From an uncultured delta proteobacterium (GTDB lineage Bacteria; Desulfobacterota; RBG-13-43-22), in contig CAWBOS010000006.1 of NCBI GenBank assembly GCA_963790475.1, positions 480,001 to 544,000 on the forward strand: a stretch of 64,000 nucleotides of DNA. Direction: 5' to 3'. Numbering within the stretch: position 1 is the stretch's first letter; the number at the start of each line of letters is the position of its first letter. A program made the translations under genes and the position numbers. The notes beneath the pieces were generated by a model. That model saw only the letters and a program-made list of their open reading frames with translations, did no database searches and was not told the DNA's origin. Shown piece by piece: positions 40,446 to 45,020 of this stretch.

Positions 40446-41417
40446 ATGAAACTGGGATCTCAAACCATAACTTTTCCCTATGTAATGGCCCCCATGGCCG
40501 GGTATACGGACCTGCCTTTCCGTTTACTGGTTCGGAAGTTAGGCTGCGAACTGGCCTATACCGAAATGGTCAGCGCTGAAGGATTGGTTCGACATATCCC
40601 CTTAACCTGGTCAATCCTCAAAACCGTTCCGGAGGACCACCCCTTATCGGTTCAGCTGTTCGGTTCCAACCCGGAAGTCATGGCTCAGGCCGCTGTTCTG
40701 GCCGGAGAGGCCGGGGCCGATATTATCGATATCAATATGGGCTGTTCGGTAAAGAAGGTCGCCAAATCCGGCTCGGGAGCGGCTTTACTGAAGGATTTGA
40801 AAAAAGCGGAACAGTTGATAAAAGCCGTCAGGAAGGCTACCCCTCTTCCCCTGACCATCAAGATACGTTCCGGCTGGAAGGAGGGGGAGTTCACCTACCG
40901 GACCATGGCCCAAATCGCTGAGGACTCCGGGGTGGACGCTCTGGTCATCCATCCCCGTTATGCGGTTCAGGGTTTTTCCGGTCAGGCGGACTGGCGGGTT
41001 GTGGCGGAAATCAAGGCGATGGTGCGGATTCCGGTCTTGGGCAGCGGAGATATCTCCACCCCGAAACAAGCCCTGGAACTCAAAAAGCAAACCCATTGCG
41101 ATGGCGTTATGATCGGCCGGAAAGCCTTAAGGGCCCCCTGGATCTTTAAACAGATCAAGGAAATGGAGGCCGGTGGCCCTCCCACCACTCCCGACCCCAC
41201 GGAAAGGCGGGGTTGGCTGGTTTCATATTGGCAATGGATTGAAGAAAATTATCAGGGACCGGCCCAAATCAAAGCCTTGCGCCGGACCTTATTCGTCCTG
41301 ACCCGGGGACTGCGGGCCTCGGGCGAGTTCAGACAAAACGTGGCCCTGGCTCCGACTAAGGAACGGTTAAGGGGCCTTTTTGAAGAATATTTTGATTCCC
41401 TGTCTTCATTGGAGTAA
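40446..41417 (+). CDS. dusB: tRNA-dihydrouridine synthase
   Basis: MAPMAG, TEMVS, IDINMGC, TIKIRSGW, GVMIGR. Confidence 0.92.
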   Translation: MKLGSQTITFPYVMAPMAGYTDLPFRLLVRKLGCELAYTEMVSAEGLVRHIPLTWSILKTVPEDHPLSVQLFGSNPEVMAQAAVLAGEAGADIIDINMGCSVKKVAKSGSGAALLKDLKKAEQLIKAVRKATPLPLTIKIRSGWKEGEFTYRTMAQIAEDSGVDALVIHPRYAVQGFSGQADWRVVAEIKAMVRIPVLGSGDISTPKQALELKKQTHCDGVMIGRKALRAPWIFKQIKEMEAGGPPTTPDPTERRGWLVSYWQWIEENYQGPAQIKALRRTLFVLTRGLRASGEFRQNVALAPTKERLRGLFEEYFDSLSSLE

Positions 41418-41584
41418 AATTAACGCATAGTAAAACTTTAGGTGTTTGATAAAAGTATCTTTCACCGCAAAGCTTGCTATATTTTAGAAAGTAGTTAAGC
41501 CGTACAAAAAAGGCTATACTCTTTCTTGATTTGAGGTCCAATTTGCAAGTTGGTTAAACCCAAACCAAGGAAAGGAGTATAGCC

Positions 41585-42844
41585 ATGAATAAGATTGAAA
41601 CAAAAAAACTTAAGAAGGTCAATGAAAAAACCCTTATCGGTACCGTGGACATAGGCAAAACGACCAATATGGGATATGGCCGCTGTCCAGACCGGACGGA
41701 AATCAAACCTTTTGAGTTTTTCAATAATGATCAAGGATTTACGAAATTTTGGAATCGGATGGTTGAGGCCAAAGAGGCCAATCACTTGGAAGAAATCGTG
41801 GTTGGTTTTGAATCCACCGGGTCTTATGGAGAACCCTTGCAACATTTTCTGATGAAACGGCCGGTGACACTGGTTCAGGTTAATCCTATGCATACGAAGA
41901 AGTTGAAGGAAGTCCAGGGTAACTCGCCCAATAAGACGGATAGGAAAGATCCCAAAGTCATTGCGGATATTATTGAGCTGGGTCATGCCCTTACCGTGGT
42001 CATTCCCGAAGGCGCGGCAGCTGAACTTCGCCGACTGACCCATGCCAGGGAGAGAGCCATACGAAGACGAACGGGCCTTTTGAACCAGATTCAGGATTTG
42101 GTCTTTATTGTCTTCCCCGAGTTTCTGCAAGTGATGAAGAATATTAAAACCCGCAGTGCCCAATATCTGTTGCGGCATTATCCGTGCCCGGAAGATATTA
42201 TCCAATGTGGTCTTGGGACCTTGAGGGCCACGCTGAGACGGGTTAGCCGAGGGAAGCTGGATAAAGAGCGAGCCCCGGCCCTTTATGCGGCCGCTGGCCA
42301 TTCCGTAGGTCTTCAAGAAGGCCGCAAGGCGATTCTTTTTGAGATACGAGAACTTCTTTCTGAGATTGAATCTTCTGACCAGTTTATTGAGAAGGCGGAA
42401 CAGGAGATGGCGGCCCTTCTTCCCGAGATCCCCTATAGTCATTCGATTCTGTCCTTGAAAGGGATAGGAGAGGTTACCACCGCCGGACTGATTGGAGAAG
42501 TCGGGGATTTTCGTAAATTTCATACGCTGGCTGAAGTCCTGAAGTTGGCCGGACTGAACCTCTTTGAAATCAGTTCTGGAAGGCACCAAGGGAATCGTCA
42601 TATATCCAAAAGAGGCCGGTCGCTTCTTAGGAAAATCCTCTTTTTTGCCGCTATCAATACGGTTCGAAAAGGGGGAGTGATGCATACGGCCTATCAAAGG
42701 CATCTGGATCAAGGAATGCCCAAGATCAAGGCCCTGGTAGCCATTGCCCGGAAGCTTCTCGGTGTTATTTTTGCCTTGGTGCGTGATCATAACGAATATA
42801 TGGAAAATTATTCAAAAGGAGCAACGTTAAAACTGGCTGCTTAG
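41585..42844 (+). CDS. IS110 DEDD recombinase
   Basis: VDIGK, FESTG, VNP, KTDRKD, LKGIG..GEVGD, SSG, ISKRG..LR, ALVAIARKL. Confidence 0.96.
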   Translation: MNKIETKKLKKVNEKTLIGTVDIGKTTNMGYGRCPDRTEIKPFEFFNNDQGFTKFWNRMVEAKEANHLEEIVVGFESTGSYGEPLQHFLMKRPVTLVQVNPMHTKKLKEVQGNSPNKTDRKDPKVIADIIELGHALTVVIPEGAAAELRRLTHARERAIRRRTGLLNQIQDLVFIVFPEFLQVMKNIKTRSAQYLLRHYPCPEDIIQCGLGTLRATLRRVSRGKLDKERAPALYAAAGHSVGLQEGRKAILFEIRELLSEIESSDQFIEKAEQEMAALLPEIPYSHSILSLKGIGEVTTAGLIGEVGDFRKFHTLAEVLKLAGLNLFEISSGRHQGNRHISKRGRSLLRKILFFAAINTVRKGGVMHTAYQRHLDQGMPKIKALVAIARKLLGVIFALVRDHNEYMENYSKGATLKLAA

Positions 42845-42855
42845 ACCTTCTTAGC

Positions 42856-43005
42856 GTGTAAGCGGAGAGATTATCGTTTGCGGCATCTAAGGCGACTAAG
42901 TCGACCTTCTCGCAGAGCTTAAATAACTCTCCGCTTGCACCTTAACCCCAATAAAGCAAGGTTAGAGCTCTGTTGAGACTCTCAAATTACCAGAGTTGGG
43001 CAAGG
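42856..43005 (+). ncRNA. predicted bridge/seek RNA in the IS110 3' non-coding end
   Basis: Two stem-internal loop-stem modules whose loop strands match the target and the donor junction (see finding). Confidence 0.8.
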
Positions 43006-43072
43006 TGTCACTCTAAGATAGTTACCAGTTTGTTTAATAATATTTAAAAAACTCTTGACAACAATAAACCAG

Positions 43073-43250
43073 ACGCAAAGAACGCAGAGAGATTTTTTTG
43101 AACAATTCCAAGAGAGACGGGATTGTTCAAACCAGCTCTGGCCTCCAGCCAAACTGACCTCTGGAGGGTAGCGAAGGCTTTTCCCTTTCTGGCCTCTCAA
43201 CAGAAAGGGAAAATTATTTCTTCTTTGCGCCCTTTGCGACTTTGCGGTGA
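43073..43250. repeat. REP-like inverted repeat element built from CGCAAAG units
   Basis: ACGCAAAGAACGCAGAG..CTTTGCGCCCTTTGCGACTTTGCGGTGA; first 11 bp stranded at 41462-41472. Confidence 0.75.
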
Positions 43251-43292
43251 GAATATTAATTTTAAAATTTAAAAGGCAAACTGATACAAATT

Positions 43293-45020
43293 ATGAAAGT
43301 CCGTCTGGCAAAAAAGGCCGGGTTTTGTATGGGGGTCCGCCGGGCAATGGAACTGGCCCTGGAGGCCAGCTATCATTTTCCCGACCCCGTTTACACCTAT
43401 GGGCCCTTGATCCATAATCCGCAGGTTTTATCGATGCTGGAAAAAAAAGGCATCCGAATCCTGGACCCTGTTGAAGATCGGCAAACGGGCACGGTCATTA
43501 TCAGGGCCCACGGCATAGCTCCCCTGGATCACGAGCGGTTGAAAAAGAGCGCCTGTACCATCATTGACGCCACTTGTCCCAGGGTGATTAAGGTCCAGGC
43601 CATTATCCGGAAATACGCCCAGGAAGGATATACCACGATCATTGTCGGTGATCGGGATCATCCGGAAGTCATCGGGCTGCTGGGCTATTCTAAAGGCCAG
43701 GGGATTGTCCTGACCCATCTGGATCAGGTTAAAGACCTGCCGGATTTAGACCAGGTGATTGTGGTGGCCCAAACTACCCAGGACGAATCCCTCTTTCAGG
43801 CGGTGGTTGAAAAAATAAGAGATCGGTTTCCCAACAGCCTGGTTTTTAATACCATCTGTAATGCCACTCATCAACGGCAGGAAGAGGTGCGCAACCTGGC
43901 TCGGCAGGTGGACGGGTTGGTCATCGTGGGGGGCTACAACAGCGGGAATACCCGGCGTCTGGTGGCGATCGCCGAATCCGTGGGTACCCCTTGCTTTCAC
44001 GTGGAGTCGGATGACCAATTGGATAAGAAAGAAATCAGCCGGTTCAAGACCGTCGGGGTTACCGCCGGGGCCTCAACCCCCAACTGGATGATTCGAAAAG
44101 TGGTCCAGGAACTGGAGATAACCAAGGGACAGGGCGAATATGTCTGGAGTGCCTTTCTCTTTCGCTGGGTACGTTTCTCGTTAAAGAGTAATCTGATGGT
44201 CGCCCTGGGGGCCGGGTGTTTGACCCTGGCGGCCTCCCGGTTACGGCAGACCCCTTTAAACTGGATATACTTTGCCGTAACTTTTTTCCATATTTATGCT
44301 ATGCACATTCTGAATCATCTCCTCGATCGAGGGGCCGCGGAATATAACGATCCGGATCGTTCTCGATTCTATCAGACGTACCGATCGGCGTTCTTCATTT
44401 CAGGGGCCGGGGCCGCAGTATTTTCCTTGGCCCTGGCCTTGACCCTGGGTTGGGCACCGTTCTTTTTCCTGGCGGCCATGAGCGCCCTGGGTATCCTCTA
44501 TAGTTTTCAGATCGTGCCGGCAGTTTGGCAGCGCTTTACAAGGATGAAAAAAATCAAAGACATCCCCGCCTCCAAAACGCTTTCCGTGGCCCTGGGTTGG
44601 GGCGGCGTAACCACCCTGATCCCGGCCATGGCCGAACATCAGCCGCTGAGTCTTTCCCTGGTTATTATCTTTTTTATCATTTGTTCTTTTGTTTATATCC
44701 GTTCCGGTCTTTTTGATGTCTTGGATATCCAGGGGGATTTGATCGTCGGCAAGGAGACCCTCCCGATCATTATCGGAGAAGAAAAAACCATCCGTTTCCT
44801 GAAAAGGTTAAGCCTGGGGACGATGCTCGGCTTATCGGCAAGCGCCCTGGGGGGTCTTCTGCCCCATTGGAGCCTATGGCTTTTGATCTGTCTTTTGTAT
44901 CAATTTGGTTTTTTAATCATTTATGAAAAGAACCGGGCTTTGCCCGGGAATGTCTTTTTCGAAGCGATGGTGGAAGCCGGGTTTATCCTGGCCGGATTGG
45001 CAGCCCTCTTAATACCTTAG
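43293..45020 (+). CDS. ispH: IspH fused to a UbiA-like prenyltransferase domain
   Basis: AGFCMGV, LIHN, IRAHG, DATCP, TICNAT, AGASTP; C-terminal TM domain with NHLLD and DVLDIQGD..GKETLP. Confidence 0.93.
   Translation: MKVRLAKKAGFCMGVRRAMELALEASYHFPDPVYTYGPLIHNPQVLSMLEKKGIRILDPVEDRQTGTVIIRAHGIAPLDHERLKKSACTIIDATCPRVIKVQAIIRKYAQEGYTTIIVGDRDHPEVIGLLGYSKGQGIVLTHLDQVKDLPDLDQVIVVAQTTQDESLFQAVVEKIRDRFPNSLVFNTICNATHQRQEEVRNLARQVDGLVIVGGYNSGNTRRLVAIAESVGTPCFHVESDDQLDKKEISRFKTVGVTAGASTPNWMIRKVVQELEITKGQGEYVWSAFLFRWVRFSLKSNLMVALGAGCLTLAASRLRQTPLNWIYFAVTFFHIYAMHILNHLLDRGAAEYNDPDRSRFYQTYRSAFFISGAGAAVFSLALALTLGWAPFFFLAAMSALGILYSFQIVPAVWQRFTRMKKIKDIPASKTLSVALGWGGVTTLIPAMAEHQPLSLSLVIIFFIICSFVYIRSGLFDVLDIQGDLIVGKETLPIIIGEEKTIRFLKRLSLGTMLGLSASALGGLLPHWSLWLLICLLYQFGFLIIYEKNRALPGNVFFEAMVEAGFILAGLAALLIP

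Follow-up and report, generated by a model that had tools for sequence, protein, structure and literature searches.

An IS110-family insertion sequence with a predicted two-loop guide RNA downstream of its recombinase gene in an uncultured delta proteobacterium

The element, its copies and its insertion sites

The window analyzed here, a stretch of 64,000 nucleotides from an uncultured delta proteobacterium (contig CAWBOS010000006.1), carries an IS110-family element of 1600 bp, in which a recombinase gene is followed by a structured non-coding region. The features of the element and of the host repeats around it are, in positions of the window:

41462-41472, + strand: left target half, TCACCGCAA plus core AG (41471-72, equally 43071-72); same flank type at 10 copies
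41473-43072, + strand: IS110-family insertion sequence, 1600 bp; 10 copies, flank divergence at the ends, ends conserved
41478-41483, + strand: TATATT, -10 half of a candidate promoter formed only on end joining
41512-41584, + strand: 5' UTR hairpin, GGCTATACTCTTTCT paired with AGGAAAGGAGTATAGCC, over the ribosome-binding site just 5' of the ATG; z -4.4
41585-42844, + strand: recombinase gene, 419 aa, DEDD (RuvC-like) and Tnp domains; Pfam, NCBIfam and PDB matches
42861-42935, + strand: RNA module 1, predicted target-binding loop; outer stem 42861-74/42923-35, inner hairpin 42889-908
42875-42888, + strand: 5' strand of the target loop
42909-42922, + strand: 3' strand of the target loop
42937-43008, + strand: RNA module 2, predicted donor-binding loop; outer stem 42937-50/42996-43008, inner hairpin 42965-81
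42955-42960, + strand: AGCAAG, reverse complement of left-end bases 1-6 (CTTGCT)
42989-42995, + strand: ACCAG, the last 5 right-end bases including the core, then A42994-G42995 (handshake-like dinucleotide)
43055-43060, + strand: TTGACA, -35 half of the candidate junction promoter
43073-43090, + strand: right target half (ACGCAAAG AACGCAGAG A), comprising CGCARAG units 2 and 3 of the host repeat
43091-43132, + strand: T-run and hairpin GAACAATTCC/GGGATTGTTC that complete host repeat unit 1
43179-43252, - strand: second host repeat unit, inverted (TCACCGCAAAG-T-CGCAAAG...); T after AG, unoccupied

Excision of 41473-43072 fuses TCACCGCAA-AG (41462-41472) with ACGCAAAG (43073-43080), and the target is rebuilt around AG as an initial annotation of this DNA had proposed. 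Since AG is present at both 41471-72 and 43071-72, the element boundary is uncertain by 2 nt. Ten copies of ~100% identity were found in the genome, each matching the query exactly over 1-1600. These copies represent one recent burst. All ten have identical ends, which answers the question raised by the initial annotation of whether other copies end elsewhere. Their flanks follow the pattern ..C(G/A)C(A/G)(A/G)AG|ACGCA(A/G)AG and diverge starting exactly at the element ends; AG is found at both ends of each copy, between ..AG and ACGCA.., and empty sites have a single AG. Insertion is site-specific in 10 of 10 copies, with no duplication beyond the shared core dinucleotide, as in the IS110 family. 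The element, an intact IS110-family insertion sequence with recent activity, belongs to a well preserved and little studied branch.

Related genomes contain multi-copy homologues with the same ends and AG core, yet with different targets. A further 80 homologous loci were collected from several phyla, 24 of which were left out for the lack of one recognisable end. Loci with duplicate flanks were counted once: L041-43 and L046 have the flanks of L012, L019, L024 and L028, and L060-65 share flanks with six of L013-L037. The element ends CTTGCTATATT (left) and AATAAACCAG (right) are conserved among homologues and remain nearly invariant although protein identity to the recombinase of the window drops to 52-55%.

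The host target is a REP-like repeat, CACCGCARAG-N-CGCARAG, and solely sites with N = A are used in the source genome. We write the variants of this target as CACCGCAAAG-N-CGCAAAG, where N is the base after the core (A, C, G or T). The unit architecture of host repeat unit 1 recurs at many sites of the genome. Among 61 look-alike sites, 14 are of the A-type and 10 of these are occupied, while occupation of AG|C/G/T sites is 0/47. The 51 empty look-alike sites divide by the base after AG into 24 with C, 15 with G, 8 with T and 4 with A; four empty sites in the genome fit the strict target pattern. That all 10 occupied sites carry A has a hypergeometric probability of 1.1e-8. The occupied A-type sites are repeat units of different hairpin subtypes, plus one non-repeat context (L008).

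Recombinase gene, 5' UTR and candidate junction promoter

The 419-aa protein has the domain pair of the IS110 family, an N-terminal RuvC-like DEDD domain (PF01548, DEDD_Tnp_IS110, residues 21-178, 2.5e-24) and a C-terminal Tnp domain with a conserved serine (PF02371, Transposase_20, residues 287-371, 5.7e-20). The NCBIfam model NF033542, 'IS110 family RNA-guided transposase', matches with 216 bits vs a cut-off of 140. In the PDB, IS621 was matched over the C-terminal part (E 4.2e-8), and ISCro4 is also similar. The ESTG, NKTDxxD and SSG motifs of the recombinase align to IS621, placing E76, D119, D122 and S331 within the IS621 motifs; these four residues and D22 are invariant among five homologues. 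In plasmid records, the full-length protein matches come from Firmicutes and Actinobacteria, the best at 35.6%; their PGAP names read 'IS110 family' and give no group.

The 5' end of the element holds just the hairpin over the ribosome-binding site, and no guide modules are found there. Among 18 homologues this hairpin has 15 consensus pairs, 4 of them with compensatory change, a small number because the sequence is highly conserved. This alignment excludes 14 of 32 homologous left ends, which the start-codon rule does not fit.

Joining of the ends gives TTGACA-17 nt-TATATT (12 + 5 nt), a candidate promoter reconstituted across the junction as in the IS110 family. The same two hexamers, at 43055-60 and 41478-83, and the same spacing had been read in the initial annotation. 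Homologues point to the same arrangement: the distance between the -10-like hexamer and the best -35-like hexamer is 17 nt in 53 of 53 distinct junctions, with TTGAC[AT] in 49 and TATATT in 44. A promoter scan gave no promoter-like site on the + strand just upstream of the 3' RNA, and a terminator scan gave no terminator-like site within the 3' non-coding end. Since no promoter-like site precedes the RNA, it would have to be processed from read-through transcripts that start at the junction promoter or outside the element.

Of 20 public runs, one of them on record as RNA, the assembled contigs of X1, X2, X3 and X20 list no joints and are neutral on the circle and on the empty allele. The RNA-library run X20 includes one 479-nt contig over 42867-43090, with 3 differences, and short contigs over 41461-41500. 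Because DNA can occur in an RNA library, these contigs do not show transcription and are given no weight, nor is any given to the gap in their cover over the gene.

Structure of the 3' non-coding end

The non-coding 3' end is 228 nt long, vs 112 nt at the 5' end. After the stop codon (42842-44) it folds as two internal-loop modules, and the consensus stems lie close to those of the initial annotation. In an alignment of 35 homologues, compensatory changes are seen in 28 of 38 consensus pairs, and helix 1 of module 1 has changes on both sides in 12 of 13 pairs. Paired cells amount to 96.6% vs 31-49% with the partners slid, and 0 of 500 shuffles match the observed value on all five measures. Module 2 (helices 4-7) is structurally as conserved as module 1. 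The consensus helices contain 74 G-U cells vs 17 A-C cells, which indicates that the RNA lies on the gene strand. In the single-sequence minimum-energy fold of the 3' end (-67.9 kcal/mol, z -5.2), the two target-guide strands pair with one another, an effect of the direct repetition between the target halves; in the consensus fold both strands are open. An Rfam scan of 41000-43700 with E up to 1 gave nothing in the RNA and two chance-level matches outside the element.

Six of 75 elements were dropped for lack of the inner-hairpin pattern (L078, L080, L087, L094, L102 and L108). The RNA alignment further excludes 8 of 43 distinct RNAs: L033 as a near-duplicate of L015, L050 for its poor site fit, and L051, L069, L070, L072, L073 and L099 for having no module 2 by pattern.

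Predicted target guides in module 1

The four guide strands that the initial annotation had described as exposed (TTTGCGGC from 42877, CGCAGAG from 42911, AGCAAG from 42955 and ACCAG from 42989) are all found in unpaired loop strands of the consensus. On the 5' strand of the module 1 loop, TTTGCGG (42877-83) is complementary to the right flank from +7 to +2, C42884 forms a pair with the core G, and A42885 lies opposite the core A. The target guides stay in module 1, where they had been placed; the extent of the 5' guide was refined to 42877-83 plus C42884, with G42883 facing the right-flank +1 A and unpaired. On the 3' strand, TCGCAG (42910-15) and AG (42916-17) equal the left flank plus core. 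The CTT that follows (42918-20) repeats the start of the left end and is handshake-like, and the first base after the module 1 AG is C in 31 of 35 homologues.

Within the window alone, short guide matches are at chance level: 2 target 6-mers are shared with the 3' end, where shuffles give 1.58 and a fraction of 0.43 of them have as many or more, and 5 donor 6-mers are shared vs 2.72 (fraction 0.17). The match itself was therefore dropped as evidence, and the evidence for guides comes from homologues. For 40 distinct guide pairs, the guides match their own left flank at 4.39 of 6 positions vs 1.87 for the targets of other families, and their own right flank at 5.43 of 7 vs 2.96, statistics that overstate independence because the families are related. 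No other target scores as high in 22 of the 40 guide families, and at most 3 of 39 do so in 33. The 5' guide frame was the better of two in own and cross comparisons alike, and 4 of 55 site rows with flanks shorter than 8 nt were dropped. A poor fit to the single known site was seen in seven of the 40 families (L050, L054, L058, L069, L072, L092 and L115). The base equivalent to G42883 pairs in 31 of 40 families. In 24 of the 40, the second of the bases with which the 5' target strand faces the core is A instead of T.

Loop sequences follow target changes among homologues, a check that the initial annotation had suggested. The element of the window and L012 (82% protein identity), whose target is GAAAAAG|GATTCAAGG, are identical at 15 of 28 positions in the module 1 loops, at 22 of 27 in the stems and at 24 of 28 in the module 2 loops.

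Other pairings of the 5' guide were considered and rejected. A GCA bulge would let TTTGCG^TCT pair fully with AGACGCAAA, yet it would put the core 2 nt nearer the inner stem than in any homologue; it is also opposed by L120, which has nearly the same target and reads TTTGCGT-CA in the ordinary frame. Pairing with CCGCAAA of the left flank was set aside as well, since the same strand matches the right flank in homologues.

Predicted donor guides and handshake-like bases in module 2

The complement of the left end is present in the module 2 loop of 33 of 35 homologues, including the compensated pair CGTGCT/AGCACG in L014 and L117. The last five right-end bases are present in all 35, including ACAAG and ACTAG variants. 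Natural variants of the ends are compensated in the loop in five of seven changed families (L015, L016, L077, L014 and L117), and uncompensated donor-side changes are found in L058 and L068. Covariation among homologues supports the division first made in the initial annotation, with target guides in module 1 and donor guides in module 2. Its description of the element as intact, with an RNA-guided recombinase of the IS110 family and an AG/CT core, is likewise borne out. As in the IS110 family, the predicted non-coding RNA has separate target and donor loops that covary with target and donor.

In 31 of 34 families, the target +1 base recurs directly after the module 2 AG (Fisher test, A vs G, 1.5e-4). 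Three families are exceptions (L048, L056 and L085); in L056 and L085 the site fits the 5' guide base and departs from the handshake base. The association of A with A recurs in L090, L113, L115 and L120. This agreement fits the known handshake guide of IS621, for which pairing with non-cognate DNA is described in the available part of PMC11208158 as promoting exchange and cognate pairing as blocking it. That the module 2 base follows the target +1 base may explain why AG|A sites alone are occupied in the source genome.

Proposed mechanism and alternative explanations

We are confident that the element most likely moves by bridge-RNA (seekRNA)-guided recombination. Its anatomy, boundaries, copy number, conserved structure and the covariation of guides with flanks and ends are read directly from sequence; how the RNA is transcribed and processed, how the recombinase binds it and which chemistry follows are proposed by analogy with IS621, ISEc11 and ISEc21. 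The element would be excised as a circle, and joining of the ends across the AG core would create a sigma-70-type promoter with its -35 from the right end and its -10 from the left. The transcript would span the structured 5' UTR, the gene of the 419-aa DEDD/Ser recombinase and the 3' non-coding end, from which an RNA of ~150 nt (42861-43008) with two internal loops may be released. Loop 1 would read the target, its 5' strand pairing with the gene-sense strand of the right flank and with the G of the core. The 3' strand of this loop is identical in sequence to the left flank and AG and hence would pair with the opposite strand. Loop 2 would read the joined ends in the same layout. Viewed from the strand opposite the gene, this would be the layout of IS621, with the left guide 5', the right guide 3' and a CT core. 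The putative handshake dinucleotides after the 3' guides would be CT(T) at 42918-20 for the donor and A42994 for the first right-flank base of the target.

A region as strongly structured as this could also be an ordinary 3' UTR element (terminator, stabiliser or regulator), with the protein itself recognising the palindromic repeat, and IS110-family elements are often found in REP-like repeats. This is very improbable given the comparison of own and cross guide matches, the lack of a terminator-like site in the region, and the pair formed by the window element and L012, in which the loops differ along with the targets, against a background of similar stems and proteins. It is equally hard to believe that the guide RNA is made from the strand opposite the gene: the core would be CT there as in IS621 and the stems are largely symmetric, but the 74 G-U cells would turn into A-C mismatches, of which the gene strand has just 17, and the gene-strand layout is the order published for IS1111-type elements, top-strand match 5' (PMC11187229, in the part available). 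A closer competitor is a short seekRNA consisting of module 1 alone, in which module 2 would be no donor guide and the ends would be found via flanking target halves. For ISEc11 and ISEc21, the same excerpt of PMC11187229 describes a 70-100-nt RNA with target matches only as sufficient and a donor that needed target flanks, and the module 2 matches extend over just 6 and 5 nt, no more than expected by chance in the single sequence. We nevertheless consider it improbable, as module 2 is conserved like module 1, its strands carry the end sequences in 33/35 and 35/35 homologues with five changed ends compensated, and its base after AG follows the target +1 in 31/34 families, which is expected only if the module 2 loop joins strand exchange.

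The exclusive use of AG|A sites may have a separate cause. Rather than reading of the +1 base by A42994, it could be a product of history, for instance of a repeat subfamily, of founder effects or of the loss of other insertions, given that the 10 copies stem from one recent burst, that there are just 14 A-type sites, and that 3 of 34 families break the handshake rule, two of them (L056 and L085) following the 5' guide base. However, the range of hairpin subtypes and the non-repeat context of L008 indicate that the occupied sites are not one repeat subfamily, and none of the 47 C/G/T sites is used even though N = C would complete pairing with G42883. Together with the repeated A/A association in four other families and the handshake experiments with IS621 (PMC11208158, as excerpted), this makes a purely historical origin rather doubtful.

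Comparison with known systems

The comparisons made here refer to the available excerpts of the cited papers. The element resembles IS621 (PMC11208160, PMC11208158) in its DEDD/Ser recombinase, a junction promoter across the core and a REP-like target, in having a target loop and then a donor loop, both simple internal loops with opposite-sense 5' and 3' guides and a 2-nt core overlap, and in the handshake-like dinucleotides after the 3' guides. In contrast to IS621, the recombinase is distantly related and of 419 aa vs 328 aa in the PDB chain, the RNA lies after and not before the gene, the CT core strand is opposite to the gene, and, as a rule, just one of the two core bases is matched by the 5' guides. 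With modules at 42861-43008, 3' of the stop codon, the RNA is not the left-end RNA of the narrow IS110 (IS621-like) group, whereas the absence of a long sTIR and the two simple internal loops agree with that group.

Downstream non-coding regions with reversed order of top- and bottom-strand matches have been described for IS1111-type and some IS110-type elements (PMC11187229), and IS1111-group bridge RNAs are located in the right end (PMC11208160). The IS1111-type elements ISEc11, ISPa11 and ISKpn4 (PMC11187229) likewise have a long non-coding region downstream of the gene, a segment complementary to the top strand 5' of the bottom-strand one, and a junction promoter that would co-transcribe gene and RNA. 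The long downstream region and the top-strand match 5' of the bottom-strand match are features that our element shares with the IS1111 group, while the sub-terminal inverted repeats of 7-17 bp of that group are absent. Between the first and last 60 nt the best inverted match is 8 nt with one mismatch, a length equalled or exceeded in 90% of shuffles (mean 8.8), in agreement with the initial annotation, which had seen no obvious sub-terminal repeats. The recombinase is also longer than the 330-350 aa stated for IS1111-type elements (PMC11187229), and the donor guides lie in a simple internal loop, unlike the multi-loop of many IS1111 members (PMC11208160).

Matched by description only, the 'green' IS110 subgroup of PMC11187229 is similar in its recombinase length (395-455 aa), lack of a long sTIR and downstream non-coding region. 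We found no experiments on such long-recombinase, downstream-region IS110 elements in the excerpts of the seekRNA and bridge RNA literature cited here. ISPpu9 of Pseudomonas putida (PMC12288879), which recombines at AG on the gene strand, shares the AG at both ends on that strand, insertion into REP sequences and a structured 5' UTR, which limits translation in ISPpu9. It differs in forming no hybrid junction promoter, which is strictly conserved here, and in having a dispensable downstream RNA, Ssr9, where the downstream RNA of our element carries the predicted guides (PMC12288879).

A downstream RNA with reversed guide order is already published for IS1111-type and some IS110-type elements. 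The suggestion of the initial annotation that the element may be an uncharacterised variant, made from its downstream RNA, its lack of long sub-terminal repeats and a CT core opposite the gene, is therefore not supported, given the downstream regions and right-end RNAs described in PMC11187229 and PMC11208160 and the recombination at AG on the gene strand described in PMC12288879. The clade may already be listed in PMC11187229 (Fig. 1b, Supplementary Fig. 2) or PMC11208160 (Supplementary Table 5). We can propose only tentatively, as a possibility that falls short of our expectation, that it is an uncharacterised IS110-type clade across several phyla, with a ~420-aa recombinase, no sTIR, a two-loop RNA of the IS621 kind that follows the gene and is inverted relative to it, near-invariant donor ends, a target loop re-aimed at least 40 times, and a site chosen here by A42994 despite the mismatched G42883.

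Implications

Bridge (seek) RNA recombinases are under development as programmable DNA insertion tools. The family described here offers one near-universal donor site, AATAAACCAG|CTTGCTATATT, and dozens of natural re-targetings of a single loop. The 61 look-alike sites, used only with A after the core, are a natural experiment that bears on the share of the handshake in specificity. If A42994 does choose the site, this would be in vivo evidence for the handshake position as a primary specificity determinant, beyond a modifier of efficiency. Genome annotation should treat the 3' end of such elements as an RNA gene and the CGCARAG repeats of the source genome as landing pads of the element.

Element boundaries and insertion sites

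Searched with 41473-43072, the genome of the window (G000) contains ten places that align over query positions 1-1600 with about 100% identity, one of them with a slightly lower score and a small difference in the protein score. Identity ends exactly at CTTGCT on the left and AACCAG on the right in 10/10 copies, the same ends that the initial annotation had read from this single copy. Left flanks follow the pattern C(G/A)C(A/G)(A/G)AG and right flanks ACGCA(A/G)AG, and the uninterrupted empty-site sequence CCGCA(A/G)AG-ACGCA(A/G)AG occurs four times in the genome. Exact ends, flanks and empty sites together define an element of 1600 bp with a 2-nt AG core common with the target, and these sequence comparisons indicate that it has spread recently in this genome.

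Nine of the ten copies lie inside one repeat family, and the setting of L008 is atypical. A REP-like repeat serves as landing pad: TTCACCGCARAG is followed by a variable base N and two CGCARAG units spaced two bases apart, after which comes a hairpin that occurs in several subtypes. Repeat units occupy 41462-41472 and 43073-43252 in the window, with a second, inverted unit at about 43179-43252 whose N is T. Throughout the genome this REP/BIME-like family has three CGCARAG units plus hairpin, frequently in inverted pairs. Very similar CGCARAG repeats are targeted by homologous elements in other phyla (L056, L071, L096 and L120).

Relatives are present in six of 40 related genomes: four copies at 82% identity in G003, seven at 64% in G020, five at 53% in G013, single copies in G010 and G008, and fragments in G005. 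Their ends, fixed by comparing copies with each other, are CTTGCTATATT on the left (CGTGCTATATT in the copy L014) and AATAAAC(C/A)AG on the right, with AG preceding all of them. Their flanks vary and, written as left-right, include (A/T)GAAAAAG-G(A/G)TTCAAGG, TTTCGTAG-GGGAGGG, nTTACAG-GAAG(T/A)A, TGTGCAAAG-GTCTCACGG and GAGTTCAG-GAAGAAAG. Scanning one genome per species revealed 167 stretches encoding relatives. The best 80 of these 167 (55-82% identity) were retained; their records are labelled Desulfobacterota-like, Nitrospirota, Planctomycetota, Glassbacteria and others, and 56 of these 80 contain both end motifs. Some homologous copies are broken by an in-frame TAA (L014) or TGA (L015), and the longest ORF is shortened to 292 aa in L055 and L057 and to 371 aa in L028/L046.

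Recombinase gene and promoter

The sole long ORF within 41300-43400 is a 419-aa frame at 41585-42844 on the + strand. It matches the Pfam families DEDD_Tnp_IS110 (2.5e-24, residues 21-178) and Transposase_20 (5.7e-20, residues 287-371), as well as NCBIfam NF033542, "IS110 family RNA-guided transposase", with 216 bits against a cut-off of 140. The only solved structures matched are IS621 (E 4.2e-8) and ISCro4 (1.3e-5), mostly over the C-terminal domain. ESTG, NKTDrkD and SSG of the recombinase align with the IS621 motifs carrying the catalytic E, D, D and S, and D22, E76, D119, D122 and S331 are unchanged in five of five homologues (52-82% identity).

The neighbours of the element are a Dus gene on one side and a LytB-UbiA fusion gene on the other. 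The latter, a 575-aa ORF downstream of the element at 43293-45020 (+), joins in a single frame a LytB (IspH) domain (1.9e-93) and a UbiA prenyltransferase domain (8.3e-13). In the 5' UTR, a long hairpin at 41512-41584, in which GGCTATACTCTTTCT pairs with AGGAAAGGAGTATAGCC, covers the ribosome-binding site before the ATG. Its arms are near-invariant among 18 homologues, with compensatory change in four of 15 pairs; by analogy with ISPpu9, it is probably a translation brake.

When 43072 is joined to 41473, TTGACA (43055-60) lies 17 nt from TATATT (41478-83). In 53/53 distinct homologous junctions, 17 nt separate the best -35-like hexamer from the -10-like hexamer; the former is TTGAC[AT] in 49 and the latter TATATT in 44. 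A junction promoter across joined ends is known for the IS110 family (PMC11208160, PMC11187229). The joined ends read ATA-AACC-AG-CTTGC-TAT, in which inverted trinucleotides (43063-43065 and 41478-41480) bracket the donor site, like the 2-3-bp STIR (ATA/TAT) that Durrant et al. describe for the IS110 group.

Structure of the 3' RNA

The single-sequence fold of the window's 3' end (-67.9 kcal/mol, z -5.2) pairs both putative target guides with one another. The consensus of 35 distinct homologous 3' ends has 38 pairs in two modules, each with an outer stem, an internal loop and an inner hairpin.

Modules of the 3' RNA (alignment consensus mapped to the window)
42861-42935, + strand: module 1 (target-binding loop); stem 42861-74/42923-35, loop strands 42875-88 and 42909-22
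42937-43008, + strand: module 2 (donor-binding loop); stem 42937-50/42996-43008, loop strands 42951-64 and 42982-95

Both sides change in 28 of the 38 pairs. Paired cells amount to 96.6%, against 31-49% after sliding partners by 1-3 columns, and 0/500 shuffles reached the observed values on all five measures. The helices contain 74 G-U and 17 A-C cells, which assigns the RNA to the gene strand. No Rfam family matched the RNA, and a scan upstream of it found no promoter-like site. The junction promoter likely drives it together with the gene, by analogy with what Siddiquee et al. propose (PMC11187229). In a soil metatranscriptome library (run X20), one contig of 479 nt corresponds to 42867-43090, spanning the 3' non-coding end of a near-identical element with three differences, and continues into another flank; it is not evidence of transcription. 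Contigs of the public runs X1, X2, X3 and X20 showed no joint of a circle or of an empty site.

Target and donor guides

Module 1 follows one rule in all multi-copy families: its 3' loop strand contains the left flank plus AG, and its 5' loop strand contains the reverse complement of the first seven right-flank bases, followed by C. For example, guides TGAAAAAG and TTGAATC-C correspond to the site GAAAAAG-GATTCAA, and TTTGTAG and CCCTCCC-C to TTCGTAG-GGGAGGG. Counting strict Watson-Crick matches for 40 distinct guide pairs, guides match their own site on average at 4.39/6 (left) and 5.43/7 (right) positions, against 1.87 and 2.96 for other families' sites, which bears out the guide-target pairing that the initial annotation had proposed. 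Its expectation that loops track targets among homologues also held: the own site has no equal rival in 22/40 families, and is equalled by at most three of the 39 other sites in 33/40; seven of 40 families fit poorly. The window element's guides score 4/6 and 6/7, equalled at three other sites because several families target near-identical CGCARAG repeats. Within the window sequence alone, k-mer matches of its guides were no better than chance. Compared with its 82%-identical relative L012, differences are concentrated in the module 1 loops (15/28 identical), against 22/27 for stems and 24/28 for module 2 loops.

In module 2, AGCAAG, the complement of left-end bases 1-6, is found in 33/35 homologues, and the last five right-end bases in 35/35. 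End variants are mirrored in the loop: ACAAG by ACAAG (L015, L016), ACTAG by ACTAG (L077) and the left-end CGTGCT by AGCACG (L014, L117). Two donor-side changes, in L058 and L068, are unmatched.

The 5' guides match only one core base each (42884-42885; 42961-42962). Core-facing bases are C-A in 24/40 and C-T in 6/40 families in the target loop, and G-T in 24/35 and A-T in 10/35 homologues in the donor loop, so core G is paired by the target loop and core A by the donor loop.

Putative handshake bases and site occupancy

In IS621, the two bases behind each right-hand guide become paired to the other DNA once strands have been exchanged; donor-loop position 166 covaries with position 7 of the target, and exchange is blocked by pairing with cognate DNA (PMC11208158). 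Seen from the strand opposite the gene, the RNA of the element is laid out as in IS621, which allows the equivalent handshake bases to be named. The base behind the module 1 AG is C in 31/35 homologues (CTT in the window, 42918-20), and C/CTT are the first left-end bases. For 31 of 34 families, the base behind the module 2 AG is the same as the target's first base on the right (G/G 25, A/A 5, T/T 1), the exceptions being L048, L056 and L085; a Fisher test of A versus G gives 1.5e-4, for families that are related to each other.

Among at least 51 empty units found in the genome with a loose pattern, N is C in 24, G in 15, T in eight and A in four, while occupied sites have A in 10/10; if N were ignored, the chance of A-only occupancy would be 1.1e-8 (hypergeometric). 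This restriction may be historical. We infer that it reflects the handshake rule acting in vivo, since the window's handshake base, A42994, agrees with the +1 A at 10/10 sites, which leaves G42883, the last base of the 5' target guide, unpaired, and since N = C sites, which would complete the G42883 pairing, are unused (none occupied, 24 empty). At N = C sites, C42918 could also form a pair with its own target, and such cognate pairing is inhibitory in IS621. The base equivalent to G42883 pairs in 31/40 families; in L120, with nearly the same target, it is T.

Relation to known elements

All features listed in the initial annotation are present in place in the sequence 41300-43400; the observation is confirmed, and its main interpretation, an RNA-guided IS110 element, is supported. 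Its suggestion of a new variant is not supported: a downstream RNA, reversed guide order and AG on the gene strand are already in print. For the IS1111 group, Durrant et al. locate bridge RNAs within the right end (PMC11208160). Siddiquee et al. (PMC11187229) report a downstream non-coding region for 186 of over 350 ISfinder entries, some IS110-type, and a reversed order of top- and bottom-strand matches in IS1111-type RNAs. In ISPpu9, recombination takes place at a gene-strand AG (PMC12288879). Among the papers from 2025 on that a literature search listed (IS1111, cryo-EM, bridge RNA), titles and abstracts include no study of a 3'-RNA element.

Unlike IS1111 elements as defined, this element is without sub-terminal inverted repeats beyond chance, and its protein has 419 aa where 330-350 aa are stated for IS1111 types; unlike in IS621-like elements, its RNA sits after the gene. 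Compared by description only, it fits the exceptions of Siddiquee et al., IS110-type with a 3' non-coding region. The element is a well-preserved addition to already known IS110-type elements, and together with its homologues it forms a useful natural data set for guide and handshake specificity.
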